From: an uncultured Candidatus Saccharibacteria bacterium
GTDB lineage: Bacteria; Patescibacteriota; Minisyncoccia; Phycocordibacterales; UBA2100
Direction of reading: 5' to 3'
DNA: 58,285 nucleotides
NCBI GenBank assembly: GCA_964462785.1
Contig: CAYWZA010000004.1
Location: forward strand, 1-58,285
Every line of letters begins with the position of its first letter. Position 1 is the first letter of the stretch. Below are positions 6,798 through 50,729 of the stretch, piece by piece. The notes under the pieces were generated by a model. It ran no database searches. It worked only from the letters and a program-made list of their open reading frames with translations, and was not told the DNA's origin. The translations under genes and the position numbers were made by a program.

Positions 6798-6918
6798 TGC
6801 AGGCAGTGGGGTGAGGTCTAAGCGCGCATGCACGCGTGTTGAGACAGCGCAGTGGTGATACTGCCCGAAGTTACCAAAAGCGATACTGTGAGCGAAGACC
6901 TGCACCCCTCTGCCTGCA
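6798..6918 (+). ncRNA. candidate structured RNA, unclassified motif, copy A
   Basis: A ~22-bp closing stem (6798-6819 / 6896-6918) has a bulged G. It encloses a core that is near-identical to 33550-33607. Stem sequences differ between copies but both pair. G-U pairs favour the plus strand. Confidence 0.4.
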
Positions 6919-33441: not shown

Positions 33442-33624
33442 GCGCCGGTTGGCATGTGGTCTGAGTGAGCATCGCGCACCACGGGGTACTTCTTGTTTTC
33501 TAATTAGTCATAAGAAAACAATGTCGCAGCGTGTATACATGCGTGCCTTGCCAGCGCAGTGGTGATACAGTCCGAAGTTACCAAAAGCTATCAGGCTCCC
33601 GAAGACCAGCATGCCAACCGGCGC
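33442..33624 (+). ncRNA. candidate structured RNA, unclassified motif, copy B
   Basis: A 21-bp closing stem (33442-33462 / 33603-33624) has a bulged G at the same position as copy A. The conserved core is CAGCGCAGTGGTGATAC..CCGAAGTTACCAAAAGC. An extra 9-bp hairpin insertion lies at 33494-33522. Confidence 0.4.
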
Positions 33625-39615: not shown

Positions 39616-39624
39616 AACGTTCTT

Positions 39625-39877
39625 TCTGCGGTGAGATTGTATCTGACGCGCGAACCCACTTCGAGAAGCAGACGGCCAACTGACGCACGCGCCACCCGCG
39701 AGGTGACTCGAGCCCCCGTACACGCGCGACCACGCCCCGCCGCCTCCTCTGATTCAGCAGAGAGGCCCGACACCCCGCCCTTTTCCTCATGTTCATTTAT
39801 TTTCGCCCCCAAAATCGAAATGATGCAAAGGGTGGGGTGTACGGCTCTTCTGTTCTGAAAGAGGCGTGCGGGGCTTC
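39625..39877 (-). repeat. 253-bp perfect inverted repeat, copy 1 (R1, inverted)
   Basis: I checked this block by block. It is the exact reverse complement of 48080-48332. Confidence 0.95.
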
Positions 39878-39889
39878 CAACTACGCTCT

Positions 39890-39966
39890 CCAACGGCTCA
39901 GCATTGGAATTCAACGGCTCAAATGTAAACAAATGAGCCGTTGAGCTATCCGTCCTGAGCCGTTGG
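39890..39966. repeat. nested palindrome with four copies of AACGGCTCA
   Basis: Outer stem ccaacggctcag/ctgagccgttgg (12 bp) and inner stem aacggctca/tgagccgtt (9 bp). It lies between R1 and the last gene of the metal operon. Confidence 0.8.
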
Positions 39967-39974
39967 TCGCGCGG

Positions 39975-40445
39975 TCAGTTTTTGACGTATTTGACGTGCT
40001 TTCCCGTGCTTCCGCTCATTCGCAACAACCCCTCTTTCGCAAGCTGGGCAAGGTGGCGCGTGGCGGTAGCGTCCGAGACATGCAGAAGTTTTTCGACATC
40101 GTCGTTCGTAACCGCGCCCTTCTTCATCACCTCCGCCATGATCCGCTCCAGCTTCGCGCGTTTCTTTGTTTGGATTGTCGCTCTCCCTTTTGCTGCTTTC
40201 TCACGCGCTCCAGATGCAGAAGGCGCGGGGGCAGATGACGGAGCGGGAGTAGGTGGCGTTGTCGGCGCGGGTATAGGCGGAGGTGTTTCGGGAAGCGCGC
40301 GCTCGGGTGTAGGCGCTGGCGCAACTACGGGCGCGGGCGCAGCAACCGGTTCGGGAGGAGGTGACGGAGCCGCCTGCGGCGGCTCCGGTATCGCATCTGC
40401 CTCAGGTGAATCGGCAGACGGCGGCTGTGTTGCGCTATCGTCCAT
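39975..40445 (-). CDS. Pro/Ala-rich protein with C-terminal winged-helix DNA-binding domain
   Basis: The N-terminal ~90 aa are a low-complexity PAPxP region. The C-terminus AVTNDDVEKLLHVSDATATRHLAQLAKEGLL is HTH-like. Confidence 0.5.
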   Translation of the reverse strand: MDDSATQPPSADSPEADAIPEPPQAAPSPPPEPVAAPAPVVAPAPTPERALPETPPPIPAPTTPPTPAPSSAPAPSASGAREKAAKGRATIQTKKRAKLERIMAEVMKKGAVTNDDVEKLLHVSDATATRHLAQLAKEGLLRMSGSTGKHVKYVKN

Positions 40446-40448
40446 ACA

Positions 40449-40895
40449 TTATCGTGTCGGCTCGACATCAGAGCGCGGCGACACTTTATTAACTATCATT
40501 TTACCGATCTGATCAAAGTGCCCACGCGGCTTGCCATCCACGATACCTTCGCCGCACGCGACGGAGCAGTAGTAGGGCCACTCGCCAACGGTGTTGGCGA
40601 TGAATTCGACATGGATGGTGCCGCGTGCAGGCAGGCGCTGCGATACGCCGAACTGATCGAGGGCGAAACCATGATCATAATCATCTTCATTCACCACAGT
40701 GAGCTTCACAAGATCGCCCTGATTGACGGAGAATGTTTCCGGATTCCAATTCCATCGGTTTTTCTGCGCAATGACGGTGAACTCGCGCACCTCACCCGTT
40801 ATCGCAGCGCGCTCACCTGCGACGAATGTGCGATACAGGATGCCGCCAGCCACCAGAACGGCGAGGACGATCAAGACCGAAATATATTTGTTCAT
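40449..40895 (-). CDS. membrane-anchored cupredoxin-domain protein (CuA-like ligand pattern)
   Basis: N-terminal TM helix. DYDHGF ... YYCSVACGEG...GHFDQIGKM resembles H...CxxxCG..H..M with an insertion. Confidence 0.55.
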   Translation of the reverse strand: MNKYISVLIVLAVLVAGGILYRTFVAGERAAITGEVREFTVIAQKNRWNWNPETFSVNQGDLVKLTVVNEDDYDHGFALDQFGVSQRLPARGTIHVEFIANTVGEWPYYCSVACGEGIVDGKPRGHFDQIGKMIVNKVSPRSDVEPTR

Positions 40896-41401
40896 GCCTT
40901 TTTTCGACTAACGAACCAGCCCGCTAATAAACCAACAATGGCACCCAGACTGACGCCCAGCAAAAGAGAATTTGTGTCGACGGTTTTTTCTTGCTTTTGC
41001 ACGTCGATGAGAAAGTCCGGCAGTTCGTGGATTTTCTGCGCTGGGTCATTCACGAACGTAAAGTCGAAGAATACTTCGTGCAATCCCGGGTTCTCGAATA
41101 GGTAGGGATATTCCAAGACGCCTCCATGCACGGAAATGTCTTTCTTTTCGTGGATGAAAGTTTCTGAACCTCTGCCTTCGCTTATCCGAACATTCACCCG
41201 TATATCCTCCTTGATAAGGACCCCCGTTTTGAGGTCAACGAACGAGACAAGCATGGCTGTCTTCGTCCCTGCGATAGGCGTAAACGGTGCTCGGGAAAGA
41301 TTGACCAAGTACCCGTCCTTCACCCGCTGATCGCCGCCATTTGCAAAAGCGGTGAAGGGCAGGAGAACGGATAGTGCGACCACAATGAGTAATTTTTTCA
41401 T
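40892..41401 (-). CDS. secreted, C-terminally anchored hypothetical protein
   Basis: Signal peptide MKKLLIVVALSVLLPFTAFA and a C-terminal TM helix. The ATG lies 1 nt after the copA stop. The ORF is open to 41530. Confidence 0.5.
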   Translation of the reverse strand: MKKLLIVVALSVLLPFTAFANGGDQRVKDGYLVNLSRAPFTPIAGTKTAMLVSFVDLKTGVLIKEDIRVNVRISEGRGSETFIHEKKDISVHGGVLEYPYLFENPGLHEVFFDFTFVNDPAQKIHELPDFLIDVQKQEKTVDTNSLLLGVSLGAIVGLLAGWFVSRKKA

Positions 41402-41402
41402 A

Positions 41403-43667
41403 CTATAATTTGATTGTTTTAAGCCTGAGTGAATTCCCCACGACCGAAACGCTTGAAAACGCCATTGCGGCACCGGCAAATACGGGCGAAAGCGTCCAGC
41501 CGAAGATCGGGTAGAAGAGCCCGCCTGCAAGCGGTATGCCGACGAGATTGTAGATGAACGCCCAGAAAAGATTTTGCTTGATGCCGCGCATGGTCATCTT
41601 CGACAGCTTGATCGCCTTCGCGAGCTTCGAGATATCGCCGTGGAGGAGCGTGATGCCCGCCGATTCGATGGCGACATCGGTTCCCGTCGCCATCGCGATC
41701 CCGACATCGGCTTGCGCAAGCGCGGGAGCATCGTTGACACCATCACCGGCCATAGCGACGACATGCCCTTTTGACTGCAATTCTTTTACTACTCTGAGCT
41801 TGTCCTGGGGTAGTACCTGCGCTACGACCGTTTCGATACCAACTTCGCGCGCGATATATTCAGCCGTGTTTTTATCGTCCCCCGTGAGCATGGTGACCGT
41901 GACGCCGAGCGCATGCAATGCGCTGATCGCATCACTTGCGCCTTCTTTCACTGCGTCAGCGACGTATGCAACGGCAAGAACGCGCGTTTTATCTGCAAGG
42001 ATGACGGGTGTGCGGCCCTTCTTCGTTTCCGTCGCAAGGAGCGCAGTGTCGAAGACAATACCGAGGTCCTGTACCAAGCGCTCGTTTCCGGCATAGTAGG
42101 TGGCACCGGCGACAACTCCCGTCACGCCCTTGCCTTTGAGATTCTCAAAACCGGTAATATCCTTTTTTGCTATGCCATGCTCTTTCGCATGGTTCAATAT
42201 CGCGTGGGCGATAGGATGCTCGGATTTTTGTTCCAAAGTCGCGAGGATAGAAAGCACTTCTTGCTCGCTCATTGAACTTTGATTTGCAATCTCCACAAGC
42301 TCCGGTTTTCCTTTCGTGATCGTGCCTGTTTTATCTACGACAACCGCTGTTACCTTGTAGAGCTTTTCAAGCGTCGCCGCATCCTTGACCAAAATGCCGG
42401 TCGATGCACCCTTCCCGACGCCCACGATGATCGCTGTCGGAGTTGCAAGCCCCAAAGCGCACGGGCACGCTATGACAAGAATCCCCACGAACGAAGCGAG
42501 CCCGAGTGAGAGCGCCACCGGAAAGCCGAGGTATGAAGTTCCCACGGATAGCCAAGTTGCAAGAGAGAGGAATGCGAGCACCAGGACGATTGGAACGAAT
42601 ATCGCGGATATCTTATCCGCTAGGGCCTGTATCGGTGCCTTGCTCCCTTGTGCGTCCTCGACCATCTTGATAATGTGGGAAAGCAAAGTTTCCGAGCCGA
42701 CTTTCGTTGCCTTGAATATGAACGAACCGTCAGTGTTTACCGTTCCCGCAACAACGGCGTCACCCGCTTTTTTCTCGACAGGCATCGGCTCCCCGGTGAT
42801 CATCGCCTCATCGATGAACGAAGAGCCCTCGACCACTGCGCCGTCCACCGGGATGCGTGAGCCTGGTTTTACGATGACGTGGTCACCGTGCACAACTTCG
42901 CCTATGGGAATCTCCATCTCGTTCCCACTGCGCACCACGAGCGCCGTCCTTGCCTGCAAGGTGAGGAGTTTTTCGATCGCGTCTCCAGTCTTAAGCTTGG
43001 CGCGCGCTTCAAGAAACTTTCCAAGCGCAATGAAGGTGATGACGACGATTGTCACGTCGTAATAGGTGTGCTCAACATTGAGATATGCTGAGAGCGGTGC
43101 CTCAAATGCCGTCACGACGAAGCTGTAGAGATACGCGGCGATGGTGCCAATGCCGATCAGCGTATCCATATTCGCCTTTCCATACCGGAGGAAGCGGTAT
43201 ACGCCAAGCAGATACGGTTTGCCGACGACGAAAAGGACGTAGGTCGCCATCAAGGGCAGCAGGTGGTGGATGGGCTCGCTTAGTGTGTGCGGCAACGGCG
43301 ACAGATATCCGAATTGGACAAGCATGTCGATTCCCATGATCAGAAAACTGAACGCCGCAAGCGGAAGTGCCGAGAGGACCAAGAGCCACTGGCTCTGGAG
43401 TTCACGCACCTTTTCCTCCTTTGCGTGATTTCCGCCCGCTTCCGTGCTCTTTGCAGCTTCTGCGCTCAGTGTGTAGCCAAGCGGCTCGACCACCTTCGAC
43501 ATATCGCCGAGCGTTATGATGCGTTCGTCATACGAGATATTCGCCCGCTCAGTCGCATTGTTTACTTCCACTTTTTCAATGCCTTTCTGCTTTTTGAGCG
43601 TACGCTCGATGATGCTTGCGCACGAGGCGCAGTGCATGCCGGTGACGTTAAGTGTTGCTTGTTGCAT
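41403..43667 (-). CDS. copA: copper-translocating P1B-type ATPase
   Basis: N-terminal [12 protein letters not shown], the CPC motif ([12 protein letters not shown]), DKTGTIT, and [10 protein letters not shown]. Confidence 0.93.
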
Positions 43668-43672
43668 ACCGA

Positions 43673-44575
43673 TTATTCTCCATGCTCGGCGAGGATGGGA
43701 AGCCGCTGCCAGGCGTGCCCTCCGTCTGCGCTTTTATAAAGGCTATTCGCCTGCGTGAGCAAGTACATCAGATCGGGATTCTGACGATAATACGAGATGA
43801 AGAGCGGCGTCTCTCCGGAGAAATTTTCAGGAATCGATTCCCATGTCGCGCCTCCGTCTGTACTCTCTGCGAGACCATTTTTCTCTGACGCCGACAAAAT
43901 ACTTTGCCCGTCCGGACTCACCGCGCTTGTCGCCACAAATCCGTCGAACAGCTGTTTCCACGTCGTACCGCCATCGATGCTCTTGAACAGACCGAGCGGA
44001 CTTGAGGCATAGAGCACCTGCGCGTCTTTGGTGTCGGCCGCAAGGTGCACGACAGGAAACTCCGTGGCAGTCTTGCTCCACGACACCCCGCCATCCGTCG
44101 TTTTCTGCAGATCGCCCCTGAACCAACCATACGCGATATTCGGGTCAACGGAGCTCACCACCATCGCGTGGAAGTCGACGGGCCCGCCGAGACCATCCGA
44201 TATTTTCTCCCAACTGAAGCCACCATCCGCCGATTTCTGGAAACCGATGTTGCCGCCATAACTGGGGTGGCCGCTGCTAAAGAAGGTATTGGAATCCGTC
44301 GGATGCGGCGAGAAGCCCATATAGTCGTCACGCTTCGCGCCCACCTGGTACAGATTCTTGTCGTCTTTCAGCAGGAGAAGCCCATAGTGGGTCGCGATGT
44401 ACACCTTGCTCGAATCATTCGGATCAACCGCAAGCCCGTGGCCGTGCGAGATCGCCTGAACGGGGATGAGCTCTTTCGCCGTGGGTTCGCCTCCCGCACC
44501 CGAACGTGACGCAAACCATGCCCCTCCGACGAGAAGAACGACTGCCGTCAGTACCATGATGATTTTTGTTTTCAT
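43673..44575 (-). CDS. secreted BNR/Asp-box repeat beta-propeller-like protein
   Basis: Repeated S/TxDGGxxW boxes: ADGGFSW, TDGGVSW, IDGGTTW, TDGGATW, ADGGHAW. An N-terminal anchor is present. Confidence 0.62.
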
Positions 44576-44576
44576 A

Positions 44577-44789
44577 TCATTGTGTAAGTTCTACTTTATA
44601 ATCTCCGACGCTTTCAATCTCTTTCTTCAGCGTGTCCCAATTGAGCTGATCGGTGTGTTCGATATCCGTTTTTCCTGTCACATAATCCACGGAACACGAC
44701 GCAATCTCTTTGAAGTCGCCGCACACATCCTCGATGAGTGCCTTGCACGCCTTGCAATGAGTGCCTCGGATCGTGATGGTTGTCTTCAT
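44577..44789 (-). CDS. heavy-metal-associated (HMA) domain protein, CopZ-like
   Basis: 70 aa. IRGTHCKACKALIE is a CxxC metal-binding loop. Confidence 0.72.
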   Translation of the reverse strand: MKTTITIRGTHCKACKALIEDVCGDFKEIASCSVDYVTGKTDIEHTDQLNWDTLKKEIESVGDYKVELTQ

Positions 44790-45031
44790 ACTTGTTTTGC
44801 ATCGTCTTTACCTGCGTCCTGCGCACCATGCCCTTTATTCATCATCGCCATCATCAAAACCATCGAGAGCGGGCAGATGAGAAAGACGAGGAATCCTGAA
44901 TGCTTGAGAAGATGCGGTGCGAATACGTATGCGAGCACAATAACAGCGCCAATGCCGACAATGACTCTCGGATTCAGGCAGCACTTGAGCATTTTTTGGA
45001 ATTTCATAGCAGCTTGTGAATGGTTAAGCAT
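44786..45031 (-). CDS. small membrane protein (DUF2933-like)
   Basis: FLICPLSMVLMMAMMNKGHG is Met/His-rich. It overlaps both neighbouring genes by 4-8 nt. Confidence 0.45.
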   Translation of the reverse strand: MLNHSQAAMKFQKMLKCCLNPRVIVGIGAVIVLAYVFAPHLLKHSGFLVFLICPLSMVLMMAMMNKGHGAQDAGKDDAKQV

Positions 45032-46766
45032 CGATGACGTTAAACTGCAGCATCTTGGAGCCCATGCTGCAGGTCGCGTACACGGTGCCCGCCTGAGTCG
45101 GCGTGAATGCGAGCGTGTTTTTGCCGAGCCTCATAGGTAAGGTGACTTCGTACTGTGGGATCACCATGACCGACATGCACCCGCCAAGCGGCACTTTCGC
45201 GTCCATCTCCACTTCCACGGGGACACCCTTCTTCACCGTAAGGGTGTTCGGATAGAAGCCGCGTTCAGCGGTGACAGTGAGCGAGAATTTCTGCGCCTCC
45301 GGTTTCGGAGGGCAGCTCGTAATGCTTGGGTCACACGTGGGAATCGTCGAGGGGTCAGCTTCAAGCGGTGCAGCAACAGTGCCCGTGGTATTCGGCAGCA
45401 CGGTGAAGCCCGAGCCGCGCGTCATCATACCCATGGAGCAGTTGAATGGAATCTCTCCCGCCTCTTTGGGCGTGAATCGGATCGTGGTGATGCCGTTCGG
45501 AGAAAGATATTTCGTAACACCGGTCGTCGGCATCACGATCACTTGCCCACAGCCGACTGCATTCCTGCCGTCTATTCTCCACTCCATCGGTATGCCAGCC
45601 GTTACGGTGAATCTGTTTGGTGAGTACGAGTAGCCGTCCACGCGCATCTCCACTATCTGTTTTCCAGCCACCACGTTCGCCGCCGGCTGCGCTTGAGCGA
45701 TGCCGTTGCTCTGGAACATGCCATCCACGTTCACTCCCGCAAGCGCAAGTCCGTTGTTGATGTTGTAGACGGCCAAGAGGACAACGAGTGCTCCGGCGAA
45801 TTTGATGAAGTGCCGTTGAAATGCGCCCCTGGTGAAGCTCGTGATCGCCGAGAGTGACGCGAGAGCCGGTACGGTGCCGAGCGCAAACATCAACATCGTG
45901 AGGGCACCCACCTTCCAATCGCCCGTCGCAAGCACATAGAGCTGGAGCGCTTGCGTGAATCCGCAGGGCAAGAAGAATGTCAATGCGCCAAGCGTAAACG
46001 GAGCAGCCTTGCTATCGCTTCCCGTGAGGTCGTGAATTTTGTGGCTAAGGAATTTCGGCATCTTGGGCGTGAATCGCCGCATCCAGGGGAAGAGATGCAA
46101 TATCTGGAATCCGAGGATGAGCATGACGACGCTCACGAAGACCATGAGATATCCGTTCACCTGTGCCGAAAGCGTGATGACCGAACCCAATGCGCCCACT
46201 AACGCACCGAGCACCGTGTATCCGATGACTCGCCCGATGTTGAAGTAGATGTGCGGCTTGAATTTCTGCATGCCGGTAAGCTCCGGGTGGAGCTCGCTGT
46301 GCCGTTCGGACACTGCGAGCAAGAGCCCGCCCACCACCGCCATGCAGGTGGAGAAAGCAGCGACGACCCCGATGAGGAACACAAGCCCGTAGCTCATGGT
46401 CTCCGAGATAGCGAATGACGGCAGGATATCGAATCCGCGAAGCACATAATAGAGCGAGACGACGATGAGAAACGCGCCACCGATCTCTAGATAGTCGCGC
46501 CAGCTATTTTTGTGCGTTCCGGCACCTGCTTTGTGCCGATCCTCCCATGACGACACGGAATAGCCATCCGTCTTTACGGACGCGTCGAATTCGTGCAGCG
46601 GGATGTGTTCTCGCGAAACGAAGACCTCAACACTGCCGGAGGTGAAGCTTGCATGCACCTTTTCGACGCCCGGAATCTTCTTGAACTTGCGCTCGATCAA
46701 CACCTCGCAGCTCGCGCAATGCGTGCCATGAACTTTAAGTCTGAATTTTTTAAGATGATTACTCAT
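45024..46766 (-). CDS. HMA domain, polytopic membrane domain (TauE/UreH/DsbD_2-like) and two cupredoxin-like domains fused in one protein
   Basis: N-terminal VHGTHCASCEV, about 6 TM helices with FLPCGFTQ, and C-terminal beta domains with the Cys/Met ligands CSMGMM and CSMGSKM. Confidence 0.6.
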   Translation of the reverse strand: MSNHLKKFRLKVHGTHCASCEVLIERKFKKIPGVEKVHASFTSGSVEVFVSREHIPLHEFDASVKTDGYSVSSWEDRHKAGAGTHKNSWRDYLEIGGAFLIVVSLYYVLRGFDILPSFAISETMSYGLVFLIGVVAAFSTCMAVVGGLLLAVSERHSELHPELTGMQKFKPHIYFNIGRVIGYTVLGALVGALGSVITLSAQVNGYLMVFVSVVMLILGFQILHLFPWMRRFTPKMPKFLSHKIHDLTGSDSKAAPFTLGALTFFLPCGFTQALQLYVLATGDWKVGALTMLMFALGTVPALASLSAITSFTRGAFQRHFIKFAGALVVLLAVYNINNGLALAGVNVDGMFQSNGIAQAQPAANVVAGKQIVEMRVDGYSYSPNRFTVTAGIPMEWRIDGRNAVGCGQVIVMPTTGVTKYLSPNGITTIRFTPKEAGEIPFNCSMGMMTRGSGFTVLPNTTGTVAAPLEADPSTIPTCDPSITSCPPKPEAQKFSLTVTAERGFYPNTLTVKKGVPVEVEMDAKVPLGGCMSVMVIPQYEVTLPMRLGKNTLAFTPTQAGTVYATCSMGSKMLQFNVIDA

Positions 46767-46769
46767 AGG

Positions 46770-47486
46770 TTACTTGTCCGCAAGCGCTTTCTCGATGAGT
46801 GCCTTCACATTCTCATACGGCTGTGCGCCCGAGAGCGGATATTTTTTGCCGTTTGCTGCGATGACGACGCTCCACGGCGTGCCCTGGCCGCCTGTCGCGA
46901 CGGCTTCTTCAAGATTGGCCGCGACATGCTGCGCGTACTTGCCGCTCGAAATGCAGGTGTTGAATTTCGCAGCGTCGAGTCCGACATATGCGGCAATCTT
47001 CGGCAACTCTGCCGGATCAAGTCCGTTGTTCGATGGCGTTACTGCGAAGACACGGTCGATATATGCCCAGAATTTCTCATTGCCGCCGAGCTCGCCTGCG
47101 CATTCTGTCGCCTCCGCTTCTTTGCGAGCCTTCGAGTGCAATTGATCGAGTGGGAAGTGGCGATACACCCATGCGACTTGTCCCTTTCCGTACGTATCGA
47201 TGACCTCGTGCATGGTGCCGTGGAACTGTTTGCAGAACGGGCATTCGGTATCCGAGTATTCGACAATCGTCACTTGAGCGTTCGGGTCACCGAGCACATG
47301 ATCATCTTTTGCGACGGGCTTCACTTGTTCCAGGTCGCCCGCCTGCGCTTGCGGCTGATCTGGCTGCGGAGCGGCGGCTACAGTGCCGCTCGATGCGCGC
47401 CCGTTGAAGAAGAGCGCGCCTGCGATGAATGCGCCTGCGATGACAATCGCGATCGGTGTGCCGAGATTAGTTAATTTTGATTCCAT
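46770..47486 (-). CDS. DsbA-family thiol:disulfide oxidoreductase (paralog of 13119-13817)
   Basis: YSDTECPFCKQFH. It aligns by eye along its whole length with the chromosomal DsbA-like protein. The ORF is open to 47525. Confidence 0.8.
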   Translation of the reverse strand: MESKLTNLGTPIAIVIAGAFIAGALFFNGRASSGTVAAAPQPDQPQAQAGDLEQVKPVAKDDHVLGDPNAQVTIVEYSDTECPFCKQFHGTMHEVIDTYGKGQVAWVYRHFPLDQLHSKARKEAEATECAGELGGNEKFWAYIDRVFAVTPSNNGLDPAELPKIAAYVGLDAAKFNTCISSGKYAQHVAANLEEAVATGGQGTPWSVVIAANGKKYPLSGAQPYENVKALIEKALADK

Positions 47487-47562
47487 AGTTACGAGATTCG
47501 TTAATAGATGCTGCGTGTGCAACAATGCTACACGAGCAGCGACCGCTGCCGCGCGTAGTTCC

Positions 47563-47985
47563 TTAACGAGACTCGTAGAGTCTGGGATTTAGAATACCGT
47601 TTGAGAACAATTCCTGGAGCGGATTTGAGAAAGGAGCATACCCGCTACATGGCTTGAAGGCGTATGGGGCAGAAACATCTGGGGGGACGAGCCGCTTACT
47701 AGAAATAGCGAAAGCCATCGCGAGTGCAATCAGAGACGCAAGGAGTGAGAAAGCATCTTTCCCTTGCGGCAATGTCGTGAGCAAGCTTTGAGATGCAGAA
47801 ATCATCTCAAGGGGCGTCATGTTGCATATCGCAACGCCGAGCGTAAAAGGACAGTCGCTCATCTGCCCATCCATGGCCGTCGTCATCCCCGCGTGTGAAA
47901 ATCCGGGGGTGCCAAACAGTAGAAAAGCAGTGAGTCCAAAGGCAAACGCTAATCGTGCAACATTGCCGCGAGCGATGACTGTCAT
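47563..47985 (-). CDS. secreted/membrane hypothetical protein, first gene of the metal operon
   Basis: Signal-like LAFAFGLTAFLLFGTPGFSHA, a Met/Cys-containing segment and a second TM helix. The ORF is open to 48003. Confidence 0.45.
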   Translation of the reverse strand: MTVIARGNVARLAFAFGLTAFLLFGTPGFSHAGMTTAMDGQMSDCPFTLGVAICNMTPLEMISASQSLLTTLPQGKDAFSLLASLIALAMAFAISSKRLVPPDVSAPYAFKPCSGYAPFSNPLQELFSNGILNPRLYESR

Positions 47986-48079
47986 GCCGAGATTATAGCA
48001 CAACGTAGCTTGGTCCGGAAACGTCGTTTAACACGCCGACCACACCAGCCCGACACACAACATTGTGTGCCCATAACCC

Positions 48080-48332
48080 GAAGCCCCGCACGCCTCTTTC
48101 AGAACAGAAGAGCCGTACACCCCACCCTTTGCATCATTTCGATTTTGGGGGCGAAAATAAATGAACATGAGGAAAAGGGCGGGGTGTCGGGCCTCTCTGC
48201 TGAATCAGAGGAGGCGGCGGGGCGTGGTCGCGCGTGTACGGGGGCTCGAGTCACCTCGCGGGTGGCGCGTGCGTCAGTTGGCCGTCTGCTTCTCGAAGTG
48301 GGTTCGCGCGTCAGATACAATCTCACCGCAGA
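48080..48332 (+). repeat. 253-bp perfect inverted repeat, copy 2 (R1)
   Basis: Exact reverse complement of 39625-39877. It is GC-rich with many internal hairpins and an AT-rich centre. Confidence 0.95.
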
Positions 48333-48459
48333 TAGAAACTTCACCCGCCGTGAGCGCGGCGTCGCGAAGCGACGCGGCAGGGGGTGGCGGCAAAAGGTGG
48401 CGTCGCTGCGCGACGAATTGATAGGGTGAGGGAAAAGAAAGGTGGGGTGTTTTGTTTCG
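48326..48459 (+). repeat. 134-bp perfect inverted repeat, copy 1 (R2)
   Basis: Exact reverse complement of 49860-49993. It overlaps R1 by the 7-nt CCGCAGA. It contains two GCGTCGC/GCGACGC hairpins. Confidence 0.95.
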
Positions 48460-48473
48460 TGTAGAATGCGGGT

Positions 48474-50111
48474 ATGCTCAAACCAAAATATTTTCTATAC
48501 GCGCGCAAATCTACAGAGGACGACGACCGCCAAGTGATGAGCATCGAAGCACAGCTTTTTGAGCTTCGAGAGTATGCGCGCAAAGAAAATCTTGAAATCC
48601 TAGCGGAGTTTCAAGAGTCGAAAAGCGCAAAGACCCCAGGGCGAGAGATTTTTGGTGAACTGATGGCTCAGGTTGAGCGAAGTGAAGGTGTAGGTATCTT
48701 GGCGTGGCATCCCGACCGATTGGCTCGTAACTCCATCGACGGCGGCCGCATCGTGTATGGCGTGGACACCCGAAAGATTGTGTCTTTGCGTTTTCCGACA
48801 TTTTGGTTTGAGCCTACCCCGCAGGGTCTATTCATGTTGCAAGTGGCGTTTGGGCAATCTAAATATTATTCAGACAATCTATCGGAAAACATCAAGCGCG
48901 GCGTCCGCCAGAAACTGCGTCGAGGCGAATGGTTGAATCGTGCTCCCTTTGGCTACCAAAACAACCCCCGTATTCGCAATATCGAGCCACATCCTACAAA
49001 CGCACGGATTGTGAAAATAGCGTACGAAGAATACGCCAAAGGGACGCATGCGCTCGTCTCTCTGGCGCAGTTTCTGGCGGACTTGGGCGTGTTTACGAAA
49101 AACGGGACGCCACTTGCCAAAATTTCCATCAAAAGGATGCTCACGCACCGGGTATATCTCGGATTCGTGAAGCATGGGACGGAATGGTTTGATGGAAATT
49201 TTGAACCGATCCTTTCTCCCGCTTTGTTTGAAGCCGTGCAGAGCATTGTCAGTGGCAAGGCGCGGCCTCGCCATCGCAAAATCAAGCACGATTTTCCGCT
49301 CACCGACCTCTTCCGCTGTGCTGAGTGCAGCGGCATGATTTCCGCCCAATGGGCAACTGGAAAGAGTGGTGGACGATATCGCTACTATCGTTGCTCCAAA
49401 AAGCGCGGCCGCTGCACCCAACCGTATGTGCAGGAGTCGGAGCTTGCAGACAAAATACGGGCACGGCTTCAAACAATCTCGCTTTCCGATCGCTACACCG
49501 ACCACATGCTCAAAATGGTGGATGAGTCGGAGAAAACAGACAAAACAGCGTCGCAAAGCGAGATTCACCATCTTTCTTCTCGAATCAAAGCGGACGAGGG
49601 GCGCATGGAAAAATTGGTGTCGGCGTATTTGGACAACGACGTACCGAAAGACATCTATCTAAAGCGCAAGGACACGATCATGCGCTCACTCGCCGCTTTG
49701 CGGGAAGAACTGAAAGATGTTGAACGCGGGAGAAAGAATCGGGTCGAACCCTTGCGGGCGTTCGTTCTCGACTTGAAACAAGCCAATGTTCTCTCCTCGT
49801 CTGAGGATTTGCATGAAATCAAGAGTTTCGTCAAAAAAATCGGAACGAACCCCATTTTGCGAAACAAAACACCCCACCTTTCTTTTCCCTCACCCTATCA
49901 ATTCGTCGCGCAGCGACGCCACCTTTTGCCGCCACCCCCTGCCGCGTCGCTTCGCGACGCCGCGCTCACGGCGGGTGAAGTTTCTATCTGCGGAGAGAGA
50001 GGGATTCGAACCCTCGATCCGGTTTCCCGGATGCATGCTTTCCAAGCATGTGCTTTCGACCACTCAGCCATCTCTCCACTCTTTATAAACGGAACCGATG
50101 CGGTCATTTGA
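48474..50111 (+). CDS. large serine recombinase
   Basis: N-terminal resolvase domain (YARKSTEDDDRQVMSIEAQ), recombinase domain, Zn-ribbon CAECSG...YYRCSKKRGRC and a coiled-coil. The last ~83 codons run through repeat R2 and antisense to tRNA-Ser. Confidence 0.85.
   Translation: MLKPKYFLYARKSTEDDDRQVMSIEAQLFELREYARKENLEILAEFQESKSAKTPGREIFGELMAQVERSEGVGILAWHPDRLARNSIDGGRIVYGVDTRKIVSLRFPTFWFEPTPQGLFMLQVAFGQSKYYSDNLSENIKRGVRQKLRRGEWLNRAPFGYQNNPRIRNIEPHPTNARIVKIAYEEYAKGTHALVSLAQFLADLGVFTKNGTPLAKISIKRMLTHRVYLGFVKHGTEWFDGNFEPILSPALFEAVQSIVSGKARPRHRKIKHDFPLTDLFRCAECSGMISAQWATGKSGGRYRYYRCSKKRGRCTQPYVQESELADKIRARLQTISLSDRYTDHMLKMVDESEKTDKTASQSEIHHLSSRIKADEGRMEKLVSAYLDNDVPKDIYLKRKDTIMRSLAALREELKDVERGRKNRVEPLRAFVLDLKQANVLSSSEDLHEIKSFVKKIGTNPILRNKTPHLSFPSPYQFVAQRRHLLPPPPAASLRDAALTAGEVSICGERGIRTLDPVSRMHAFQACAFDHSAISPLFINGTDAVI
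49860..49993 (-). repeat. 134-bp perfect inverted repeat, copy 2 (R2, inverted)
   Basis: Exact reverse complement of 48326-48459. Its last 3 nt overlap the 3' end of tRNA-Ser. Confidence 0.95.
49991..50077 (-). tRNA. tRNA-Ser (anticodon GGA)
   Basis: 87 nt. Acceptor stem GGAGAGA/UCUCUCC, anticodon arm CAUGC-UUGGAAA-GCAUG, long variable arm UCCGG-GAAA-CCGGA, T arm GAGGG-UUCGAAU-CCCUC, discriminator G. No CCA is encoded. Confidence 0.9.
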
Positions 50112-50729
50112 TGTACCGAATGTCCGCATATACTTCGTAACAGCCTCCCCACTATACAGGTAGATACGACGTCCCTCGTCAGTAATATGAGGGGTAATTC
50201 GAAATTCTTCAAGTACGGCTGCTACTTGTCCAATGAGCTTTAATGAATGGCTGGTGAAGCATAGACCGATGTTTCTGTATTCCCTATTAAGCACATTATG
50301 GCGATGTACGTACAAACAACCGTCAGTATCCATGAGTCCTCGAACGCACTGACGTCGGTAAATCCTCTGACAAAGAATCCACTCGGGAATTTCTAAACCG
50401 TGCTTAAGTTTATTTCCTCTTGGTAGCCCGTTCCCAACAAGAAAATCAACCACCGCTGTACTGGACAAAGACACGACCAGGGTCTTTCTCTCCTTGCGTT
50501 TACGAATAGCGGGATGTATACCGAAAATACGGTAGCAAAGAGTGGCTACATATTTAGAGTATGTCGCATCCGCCTTCGAATTCAACGTGATGTTTGCTTG
50601 CCAATCGTTATTTATTCCGCCATCACCAAGCATGATGCCGAAAAATTCAGCAAGGTTAGGTGATGGTCGAGGGAGTGTGACGACCTTTCGATGGCTCTTT
50701 TTCGGATACCTGAGTGTGCTTGTTTCCAC
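50064..50729 (-). CDS. LAGLIDADG-family endonuclease (two-motif, free-standing)
   Basis: Motifs LAEFFGIMLGDGG and VRGLMDTDGC. The TGA stop lies 14 nt inside the 5' end of tRNA-Ser. Confidence 0.8.
   Translation of the reverse strand: METSTLRYPKKSHRKVVTLPRPSPNLAEFFGIMLGDGGINNDWQANITLNSKADATYSKYVATLCYRIFGIHPAIRKRKERKTLVVSLSSTAVVDFLVGNGLPRGNKLKHGLEIPEWILCQRIYRRQCVRGLMDTDGCLYVHRHNVLNREYRNIGLCFTSHSLKLIGQVAAVLEEFRITPHITDEGRRIYLYSGEAVTKYMRTFGTSNDRIGSVYKEWRDG

Follow-up and report, generated by a model that had tools for sequence, protein, structure and literature searches.

Positions 39625-49993 of contig CAYWZA010000004.1, from an uncultured Candidatus Saccharibacteria bacterium, hold an integrative element at the extreme 3' end of a tRNA-Ser(GGA) gene, with a copper operon as its cargo and a large serine recombinase (LSR) as its sole recombinase; the window referred to throughout is the whole 58,285-nt stretch of that contig. 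A core pattern (TCTGCGGnGAGA / TCTGCGGNGAGA) matches three times in the window, against 0.04 matches expected, and three matches were reached in none of 100 shuffles. The direct 12-nt repeats at the two ends, which a preliminary description made from the letters of the sequence had taken for attachment (att) sites, are real and bracket an insert of 10,362 bp. That description was also right about the three cores, although it understated the long inverted repeats that bracket both modules of the element and have the 12-mers as their outer tips. Specifically, inverted repeat 1 (258 nt, 100% identical) encloses the 8.2 kb cargo, and inverted repeat 2 (139 nt, with one mismatch only, at the P'/tRNA boundary) encloses the recombinase gene; there are no other long repeats in the 58-kb window. 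From left to right, the element reads flank, core, R1, cargo, R1 in reverse complement (R1rc), core in reverse complement, R2, LSR, R2rc, core and tRNA. Aligned on the core, site A consists of left flank, TTCT[T]TCTGCGG[T]GAGA and R1; site B, in reverse complement, of R2rc, TTCT[A]TCTGCGG[T]GAGA and R1; and site C of R2rc, TTCT[A]TCTGCGG[A]GAGA and the tRNA. Together, the three sites match what attL, attP and attR are expected to look like, and since the discriminating bases (in brackets) flank TCTGCGG on both sides, the exchange lies within TCTGCGG (39625-39631; 49987-49993). The integrated form is attL, cargo, intact inverted attP, LSR and attR, with a ~380-bp attP region present in two mutually inverted copies.

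The right-hand core copy contains the final nucleotides of tRNA-Ser(GGA), the sole tRNA that ARAGORN finds in the window. This gene is the B' half of the original attB, and the exchange falls in its last acceptor base, its discriminator and the next base or two. As in the tRNA islands defined by Islander, the insertion lies in a tRNA or transfer-messenger RNA (tmRNA) gene that is regenerated, tRNA-Ser being intact; unlike in those islands, which are defined by a tyrosine integrase, the only recombinase of the element is a serine recombinase. Targets of this kind are usually taken by tyrosine integrases (PMC4383910). Directly upstream of tRNA-Ser and on the same strand, a free-standing LAGLIDADG-type open reading frame (ORF) of 221 amino acids (aa; PF14528, E = 5.8e-8) occupies 50064-50729 (-), its 3' end overlapping the tRNA 5' end by 14 nt.

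The recombinase combines Resolvase (PF00239; E = 1.6e-22, residues 7-153), Recombinase (PF07508) and Zn_ribbon_recom (PF13408) domains, and its nucleophile motif, R11-K12-S13, is invariant in 24 homologues. Its closest solved structure is the SPbeta integrase (9dxh, E = 5e-13), a full-length match over query residues 9-452. The enzyme has the make-up of an LSR: a catalytic domain with its serine, recombinase and zinc-ribbon domains C-terminal to it and, on the strength of the SPbeta alignment, a coiled coil, together with attP and attB sites that share few bases (a core of 7 nt in the window and of 3-14 nt in 22 loci of relatives). With 500+ aa, it is not a small serine invertase of ~190 aa with a C-terminal helix-turn-helix (HTH) and an enhancer. 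Although the preliminary description named the enzyme correctly, it missed that the ORF spans attP and attR. No stop codon occurs before 50111, and the frame reads R2rc, the core and then the antisense of the tRNA; the R2rc arm (49860..49998) encodes residues 463-508, the conserved protein ends at ..EVSICG (~49992), and the last 39 codons are antisense tRNA plus flank. Because the ORF crosses the P arm and the crossover, the C-terminal tail depends on the sequence beyond the core. The C-termini of homologues can be aligned up to ..LSExEVSICG, after which many continue with GGIRT.., the antisense translation of the tRNA T-arm, and the tail derived from P' reads GEIVSDARTHFEKQTAN. The frame is open through the arm to the core in 69/69 full-length members. 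Protein-coding constraint on the tail was considered and set aside: codon periodicity in the tail is weak (0.53/0.45/0.57, versus 0.16/0.10/0.44 in the catalytic domain), which leaves the tail at most loosely constrained. The family has no stop codon before the core, so that gene callers fuse the integrase to whatever comes next, and the lengths of 508-693 aa in databases mostly reflect read-through rather than real domains; one relative of 693 aa (P0040) is an LSR fused to a PF21818 domain.

Upstream of the gene, the left arm of inverted repeat 2 occupies the entire spacer from the core of the internal attP to the LSR promoter region. An extended -10-like box, TGTAGAAT, lies at 48460-48467, 6 nt upstream of the ATG, and relatives have a conserved GTTTCGTATCTAAAA at the matching position, which suggests that the LSR mRNA is leaderless or near-leaderless, with its -35 region in the inner end of the repeat arm. 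A scan of the attP/LSR spacer for consensus promoters and terminators returned nothing above chance.

The cargo is a ten-gene minus-strand operon (Table 1). A domain search bore out the gene content first described for the element, namely CopA, an HMA chaperone, cupredoxins, a fusion protein, DsbA-like and BNR proteins and the LSR. As in cop operons, a CopA-like P1B ATPase with an HMA domain (754 aa) is accompanied by an HMA protein (70 aa), and the family membership of these proteins points to copper as the presumed metal. The first gene of the operon sits where most relatives have an XRE regulator; the window has no XRE/HTH_3 regulator, which in relatives is the conserved small gene beside attP. 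No phage genes are present in the window cargo, and no replication gene was seen there with Pfam.

Table 1. Coordinates of the element, its sites and its genes in the window.
Feature	Position	Strand	Basis
attL core: left flank joined to P' arm	39620..39636	+	pattern search, site alignment, family alignment
R1, P' arm: distal arm of inverted repeat 1	39620..39877	+	repeat search
Core copy TCTGCGGTGAGA	39625-39636	+	pattern search
Winged-helix regulator, Pro/Ala-rich N-terminus, weak MarR/HTH_24 matches; last operon gene	39975..40445	-	Pfam
Cupredoxin-like protein	40449..40895	-	PF13473
Protein without Pfam match, up to 212 aa, start uncertain, overlaps copA end	40892..41530	-	Pfam
CopA-type P1B ATPase (HMA + E1-E2 ATPase + HAD), 754 aa	41403..43667	-	Pfam
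BNR/Asp-box beta-propeller protein with signal peptide	43673..44575	-	Pfam
HMA copper chaperone, 70 aa	44577..44789	-	Pfam
DUF2933 small protein	44786..45031	-	Pfam
Fusion protein: HMA, DsbD_2 membrane domain, two cupredoxin stretches	45024..46766	-	Pfam
DsbA-like thioredoxin-fold protein	46770..47525	-	Pfam
First operon gene, up to 146 aa, no Pfam match	47563..48003	-	Pfam
R1 reverse complement: proximal arm of inverted repeat 1	48080..48337	-	repeat search
Core copy TCTGCGGTGAGA	48321-48332	-	pattern search
Core of intact inverted internal attP (minus strand: R2rc, core, R1)	48321..48337	-	site alignment
R2: left arm of inverted repeat 2	48321..48459	+	repeat search
LSR ORF, 545 aa	48474..50111	+	ORF call, Pfam
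R2 reverse complement, P arm: right arm of inverted repeat 2	49860..49998	+	repeat search
attR core: P arm joined to tRNA	49982..49998	+	site alignment
Core copy TCTGCGGAGAGA	49987-49998	+	pattern search
tRNA-Ser(GGA), intact	49990-50077	-	ARAGORN; Rfam RF00005, 63.8 bits

The LSR has 4,922 relatives at E <= 1e-10, of which the best 120 are 64-94% identical to it, every named one being from Patescibacteria (the candidate phyla radiation, CPR). A scan of one genome per species yielded 535 stretches that encode a relative, from which 80 loci were kept, and four more loci from exact look-ups of homologous proteins brought the total to 84. The distal sites of 22 relatives share just a 3-14-nt core with the tRNA 3' end and ~64/84 loci adjoin the 3' end of a tRNA or tmRNA gene, which upholds the boundaries and the tRNA target proposed for the window element. 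That gene lies on the opposite strand, its 3' end ~1,517 nt past the LSR start, and the targets in these 64 loci are Glu (24), Ser (17), Arg (7), Ala (6), Leu (3), tmRNA (3), Gly (2), Lys (1) and a tRNA with the anticodon TTA (1). A repeat brackets the LSR in 72/80 of the genome-scan loci, at fixed positions ~-160..-30 and +1389..+1519 from the start codon, and a repeat around the cargo is present in 26/80, its proximal arm abutting the LSR repeat and its distal arm lying 1.1-9.4 kb upstream. The internal inverted copy, initially interpreted as attP from the window only, is kept at the same position across the family. Inverted duplication of the attP region is thus a family signature, which the preliminary description, correct on the architecture within the window, had missed. 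Overall, the comparison points to a very large Patescibacteria family of LSR elements that insert at tRNA and tmRNA 3' ends. Full-text literature searches found no published description of the family or of an inverted internal attP, and exact database look-ups of the window LSR and its two nearest relatives returned no record.

Cargo varies among loci and comprises the copper operon, restriction-modification and defence genes, and others; the family carries defence modules as well as metal resistance. In L091 (1944-4379), for instance, an EcoRI-like methylase and a GmrSD_N/HNH protein stand behind an XRE regulator, and restriction- or defence-type genes were also observed in L071 (1918-4950). 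A prophage origin was rejected, given the absence of phage genes from the cargo and the near-absence of the family from viral contigs, 2.9 million of which gave only 2 truncated matches. Some loci extend the range of targets and layouts. In L062, L064, L065 and L068, the target just past the LSR 3' end (..TGGAGATGGCGGGAATTGAACCCGC..) is a tmRNA 3' end, called as tmRNA by ARAGORN in three of them; the TTA anticodon belongs to an ARAGORN 'tRNA-Stop' in L067 (1832-1905); and L042 and L050 have tRNA-Ser(ACT) as their target. Tandem arrays also occur, L010 having three LSR paralogues at one tRNA-Ser. In this locus (JBAXFJ010000001.1, 3198-14398), the paralogues share ~75-77% DNA identity and lie in tandem beside tRNA-Ser(GCT), each bracketed by an inverted repeat of its own; after two of the LSRs comes a perfect direct repeat of 191 nt, which, past the common P-arm end and the core, runs on into 15 nt from the 3' end of tRNA-Ser. 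This arrangement resembles an accretion array or a shufflon, and a tRNA-Ser(ACT) lies ~110 nt past the target on the opposite strand. In L007 (11508-16304), the LSR 3' end adjoins not a tRNA but a second P'-like arm, which opens a 4.3-kb segment with its own 235-nt inverted repeat, the integrase standing between two cargo modules. Many members are found on public metagenome contigs of 1.7-2.0 kb that consist of the LSR and both arms only (for example, P0012, P0072, P0097 and P0100).

Could the layout stem from mis-joined metagenome contigs or chimeric amplification? The window is a metagenome-type NCBI contig, its perfect 139- and 258-nt repeats are hard for short reads, and 35/80 relatives have a contig end <600 nt upstream of the LSR. 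By contrast, the layout recurs within long contigs that many independent studies and assembly programs produced, one source record being a closed chromosome (CP060229.1), and it is kept in loci whose arms have diverged to 77-95% identity and pose no repeat ambiguity. The three-site layout is not an assembly artefact, and we regard an explanation in those terms as extremely improbable. The repeats nonetheless break short-read assemblies, 35/80 loci lying at contig ends, and orientation in metagenome-assembled genomes is not trustworthy without spanning reads; elements of this family systematically fragment Patescibacteria assemblies and may mis-orient them as well.

The attL/attP/attR pattern of the window recurs in 22 loci, the common core (3-14 nt) containing GCGG for Ser, GTGA for Glu, GTGC for Arg, Gly and Leu, and GTGG for Ala and tmRNA targets; these bases take in the end of the acceptor strand (its last base or bases), the discriminator and one or two bases beyond it. 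Outside the distal site, the flank is unconserved and in several loci resembles a terminator hairpin, as expected downstream of a tRNA gene. Conservation of attP is limited to ~65 nt, comprising ~20 nt to the left of the core (GAAGTTTC) and ~45 nt to the right (..CTTTGCGCGAACCCAyTTCGAG); the rest of R1 is unconserved in sequence, yet duplicated. The P' arm has a conserved T-loop-like motif (..TTGCGCGAACC..), and R1 of the window carries ACGCGCGAACC at 39646-39656, inside the ~45 nt next to the core that are kept in the family. Relative to the CGAA of the tRNA T-loop, the CGAAC of the P' arm is shifted by exactly 6 nt away from the crossover in 42/45 loci. As is typical of LSRs, the same motif is spaced differently in attP and attB, here on the evidence of the right half-sites. 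In the structure of the LI integrase with attP, the zinc-ribbon domains reportedly contact one motif in both sites, but ~5 bp more distally in attP. In light of this spacing and of the conserved 6-nt offset, the mimicry of the tRNA T-arm by R1, pointed out earlier for the window as a loose resemblance, is probably a half-site recognition element.

Within cluster P0018, whose LSRs are >=90% identical, the proteins are alike up to ..SEVSFCG and diverge exactly after the core, continuing into the P' arm (DVLAFARTHF..), a tRNA remnant or at least four tRNA-like sequences (DGGIRTLEGF, EGGIRTLEGR, ERGIRTLDEF.. and ERGIRTLDRF.. among them). These divergence points are breakpoints of recombination at the core, within a lineage that is recent, and LSRs at least 90% identical that are joined to differing tRNAs or to the attP arm right after the core lend support to the mobility first proposed from the window. 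Among the 120 homologues, at least 44 tails are of tRNA type and at least 11 of P' type. Excision from the window is predicted to leave the empty site ..CCATAACGTTCTT, TCTGCGG, AGAGAGAGGGATTCG...

Both LSR orientations occur in nature. An XRE/HTH_3 regulator adjoins the internal attP in 32/33 of the loci having one; it is divergent from the LSR in 27 loci and downstream of and co-directional with it in 5, in which the LSR cassette is flipped (L071, L091 and L016 are among the loci of this arrangement). The cassette is likewise flipped in L029, L034, L070, L090 and L092, where the tRNA (+) lies just upstream of the LSR; the arms of L090 are only 87% identical, and its flipped orientation is thus real rather than an assembly ambiguity. 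The cargo is flipped in one locus only, L033. One contig of 3,923 nt (L089) is made up of cargo and the LSR plus two oppositely oriented copies of a 399-nt repeat, one between cargo and LSR and the other after the LSR. It has no tRNA or chromosomal flank and is a candidate free form, of the shape into which a circle bearing attP twice, in inverted orientation, would assemble. Loci with a high identity between the arms of one repeat tend to have it in the other as well (Spearman 0.52, p = 0.007), a correlation taken as a signal of age. The repeat around the LSR is 100% identical in 34/72 loci and <93% identical in 12, with the LSR ORF intact in some of the diverged loci.

As in an invertible switch, inverted sites bound the segment and both orientations are found across genomes. 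The LSR might accordingly be viewed as a domesticated host invertase that serves phase variation of its own cassette, and perhaps of the cargo, and is no longer mobile; inverted repeats do enclose both segments, and LSR genes remain intact in some loci with diverged arms. We consider this very unlikely, however, in that cargo differs among loci, eight kinds of tRNA and tmRNA serve as targets, near-identical LSRs are found at different tRNAs, and tandem arrays occur. Furthermore, the repeats fill the entire spacer up to each first gene, so that the regulatory surroundings inside the arms are locally the same after inversion as before.

We think it likely that this is an LSR integrative element with an inverted-duplicate attP and an invertible integrase cassette. 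From the comparative breakpoints and the anatomy of the sites, the LSR would recombine attP (P arm, core and P' arm) with attB, of which the tRNA acceptor and T-arm, the only conserved half, would be the half recognised. The free form would be a circle in which two inverted attP copies separate the cargo from the LSR gene, and the LSR cassette in the chromosome would be an invertible segment. To invert this cassette, the LSR itself would pair the internal attP, whose right half is P', with attR, whose right half is the tRNA. The same P'-by-tRNA pairing would also serve integration and, with no need for a further protein as directionality factor, excision by attL x attR; recombination between attL and the internal attP, which both carry P', would be rare or absent. 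A flip would alter the integrase tail and determine whether the gene is convergent with the tRNA or lies downstream of it. Elements whose cargo is limited to one or two genes would be in keeping with excision that dispenses with a directionality factor; the reason for keeping a spare attP is conjectural and unproven.

Several points weigh against such an invertible integrative element. Canonical LSRs such as phiC31 and Bxb1 are not known to act on attP x attR, and their attL x attR reaction depends on a directionality factor; the P'-by-tRNA half-site rule put forward here departs from this behaviour, and no candidate for a directionality factor was identified in a search that was not exhaustive. 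The arms in the window are 100% identical, which makes the assembled orientation of both segments uncheckable without reads, and homologous recombination between the repeats could yield the isomers. Flips of the LSR (~8/84) and of the cargo (1/33) do not differ with statistical significance. The circularity of L089 is unproven, no circular junction was found for the window element, and no empty-site relative was found, the metagenome-contig relatives of the flanking methyltransferase being <=35% identical. The compositional comparison with the flanks that had been suggested at the outset discriminates only weakly (GC of 54.8% in the element and 51-54% in flanking windows), and GC was set aside as a sign of foreign origin, the difference being too small. 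Among other candidate explanations, a role of R1 as a recombination directionality factor (RDF) or regulator was rejected, the 75-aa ORF in R1 having no Pfam match and R1 being unconserved past ~45 nt.

The internal attP and the long repeats could also be the functionless result of an ancestral duplication homogenized by RecA gene conversion, the element being an ordinary LSR island in which only attL and attR matter and flips are by-products. Arms that are mostly 98-100% identical, but 77-90% identical in some loci with an intact LSR ORF, fit conversion with a divergence threshold; most of the R1 sequence is unconserved, and the flip frequencies of LSR cassette and cargo are not significantly different. 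Conversely, the duplication persists with fixed inner boundaries (~-28 and +1389 from the LSR start) in 72/80 loci, across LSRs down to ~56% identity, which argues for selection. The shorter repeat flips more than the longer one, opposite to what homologous recombination would give, and all 69 full-length members keep an open LSR frame across the arm as far as the core, even though codon constraint there is weak. We therefore judge the ordinary island to be unlikely. Under a bolder version of the preferred invertible element, the mirrored attP would be a built-in substitute for a directionality factor, one protein integrating, excising and flipping its own gene; the flip would switch the integrase between C-termini and change where it stands with respect to transcription of the tRNA, thereby setting whether the element stays or leaves. 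This is a speculative possibility that we hold to be doubtful. As a variant, the two repeat pairs might let a single strand fold into a dumbbell with a fully double-stranded attP, for example after uptake by competent Patescibacteria.

Three further models were rejected. If there were two independent circles with palindromic sites, the crossover dinucleotide would have to be a palindrome, and the Glu-type cores (TTTGTGA; TGA in L047) contain none; tandem accretion would yield direct, not inverted, repeats at the internal attP; and amplification in the manner of the 2-micron plasmid would need attP x attP recombination, with no replication gene in the element.

With the LSRs of phages (phiC31, Bxb1, A118/LI and SprA of SPbeta), the family shares the architecture of resolvase, recombinase, zinc-ribbon and coiled-coil domains, short att sites with a tiny common core and a difference in motif spacing between attP and attB (6 nt in the family and reportedly ~5 bp in the LI integrase). 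By contrast with these enzymes, it targets tRNA and tmRNA 3' ends rather than protein-coding or intergenic sites, only one attB half is conserved, attP is duplicated in inverted form, the integrase ORF spans attP, and a directionality factor is not apparent, not even where the cargo comes down to one or two genes. In the clostridial transposons Tn4451 (TnpX) and Tn5397 (TndX), one LSR alone performs excision and insertion of a small cargo element, but these are not known to have tRNA targeting, long inverted repeats or an internal attP. An attP inside the integrase gene, as in the family, is known from the myxophage Mx8 (intP/attP) and SSV1-type elements, whose integrases are tyrosine recombinases; integration changes the C-terminus in Mx8, which targets a tRNA 3' end, and splits the gene in SSV1. 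Neither is known to have a second attP, and the original form of the gene is not recoverable by inversion. The placement of a recombinase gene between inverted repeats that carry its own sites, with two orientation isomers, recalls the yeast 2-micron plasmid (FLP/FRT) and Hin. FLP is a tyrosine recombinase on an autonomous replicon and inverts for copy amplification, and Hin is a small serine invertase, not an integrase, that acts on 26-bp sites with an enhancer. The free form proposed here would, like the 2-micron plasmid, consist of two unique segments split by an inverted repeat; unlike in that plasmid, no replication gene was seen in the window element. To our knowledge, no known system combines an LSR, a tRNA target, an attP in the integrase gene and a recombinase between inverted sites.

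Tyrosine-integrase tRNA islands (Islander, P4-like; PMC4383910) share with the family 3'-end insertion with gene regeneration, variable cargo and tandem arrays; the family differs from them in its serine enzyme, in a core of only 3-14 nt rather than a long displaced tRNA fragment and in the internal inverted attP. An LSR family at tRNA targets contrasts with the usual role of tyrosine integrases there (PMC4383910). The tycheposons of Prochlorococcus are likewise small cargo islands at tRNA genes in streamlined genomes, 910/937 having tyrosine recombinases and the rest LSRs (10.1101/2020.12.28.424599). These islands, mostly with tyrosine recombinases and often with replication modules, have no reported mirrored attP.

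Patescibacteria make up a large share of bacterial diversity and have tiny genomes, few recognised mobile elements and few genetic tools. In this major and poorly understood radiation, the family is a dominant type of mobile element: small cargo modules enter tRNA and tmRNA genes by way of thousands of related integrases, of which a genome often has several. The many natural attP/attB pairs, which read the universal T-loop at a defined offset, are attractive for serine-integrase engineering as well as for integration vectors in Patescibacteria, and the conserved mirrored attP, together with an integrase gene that extends across the crossover, may reveal a new control of recombination direction.

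Elsewhere in the window, an 89-nt direct repeat (6816-6904 and 33523-33611; 75% identical, copies 26.7 kb apart) is unrelated to the element.

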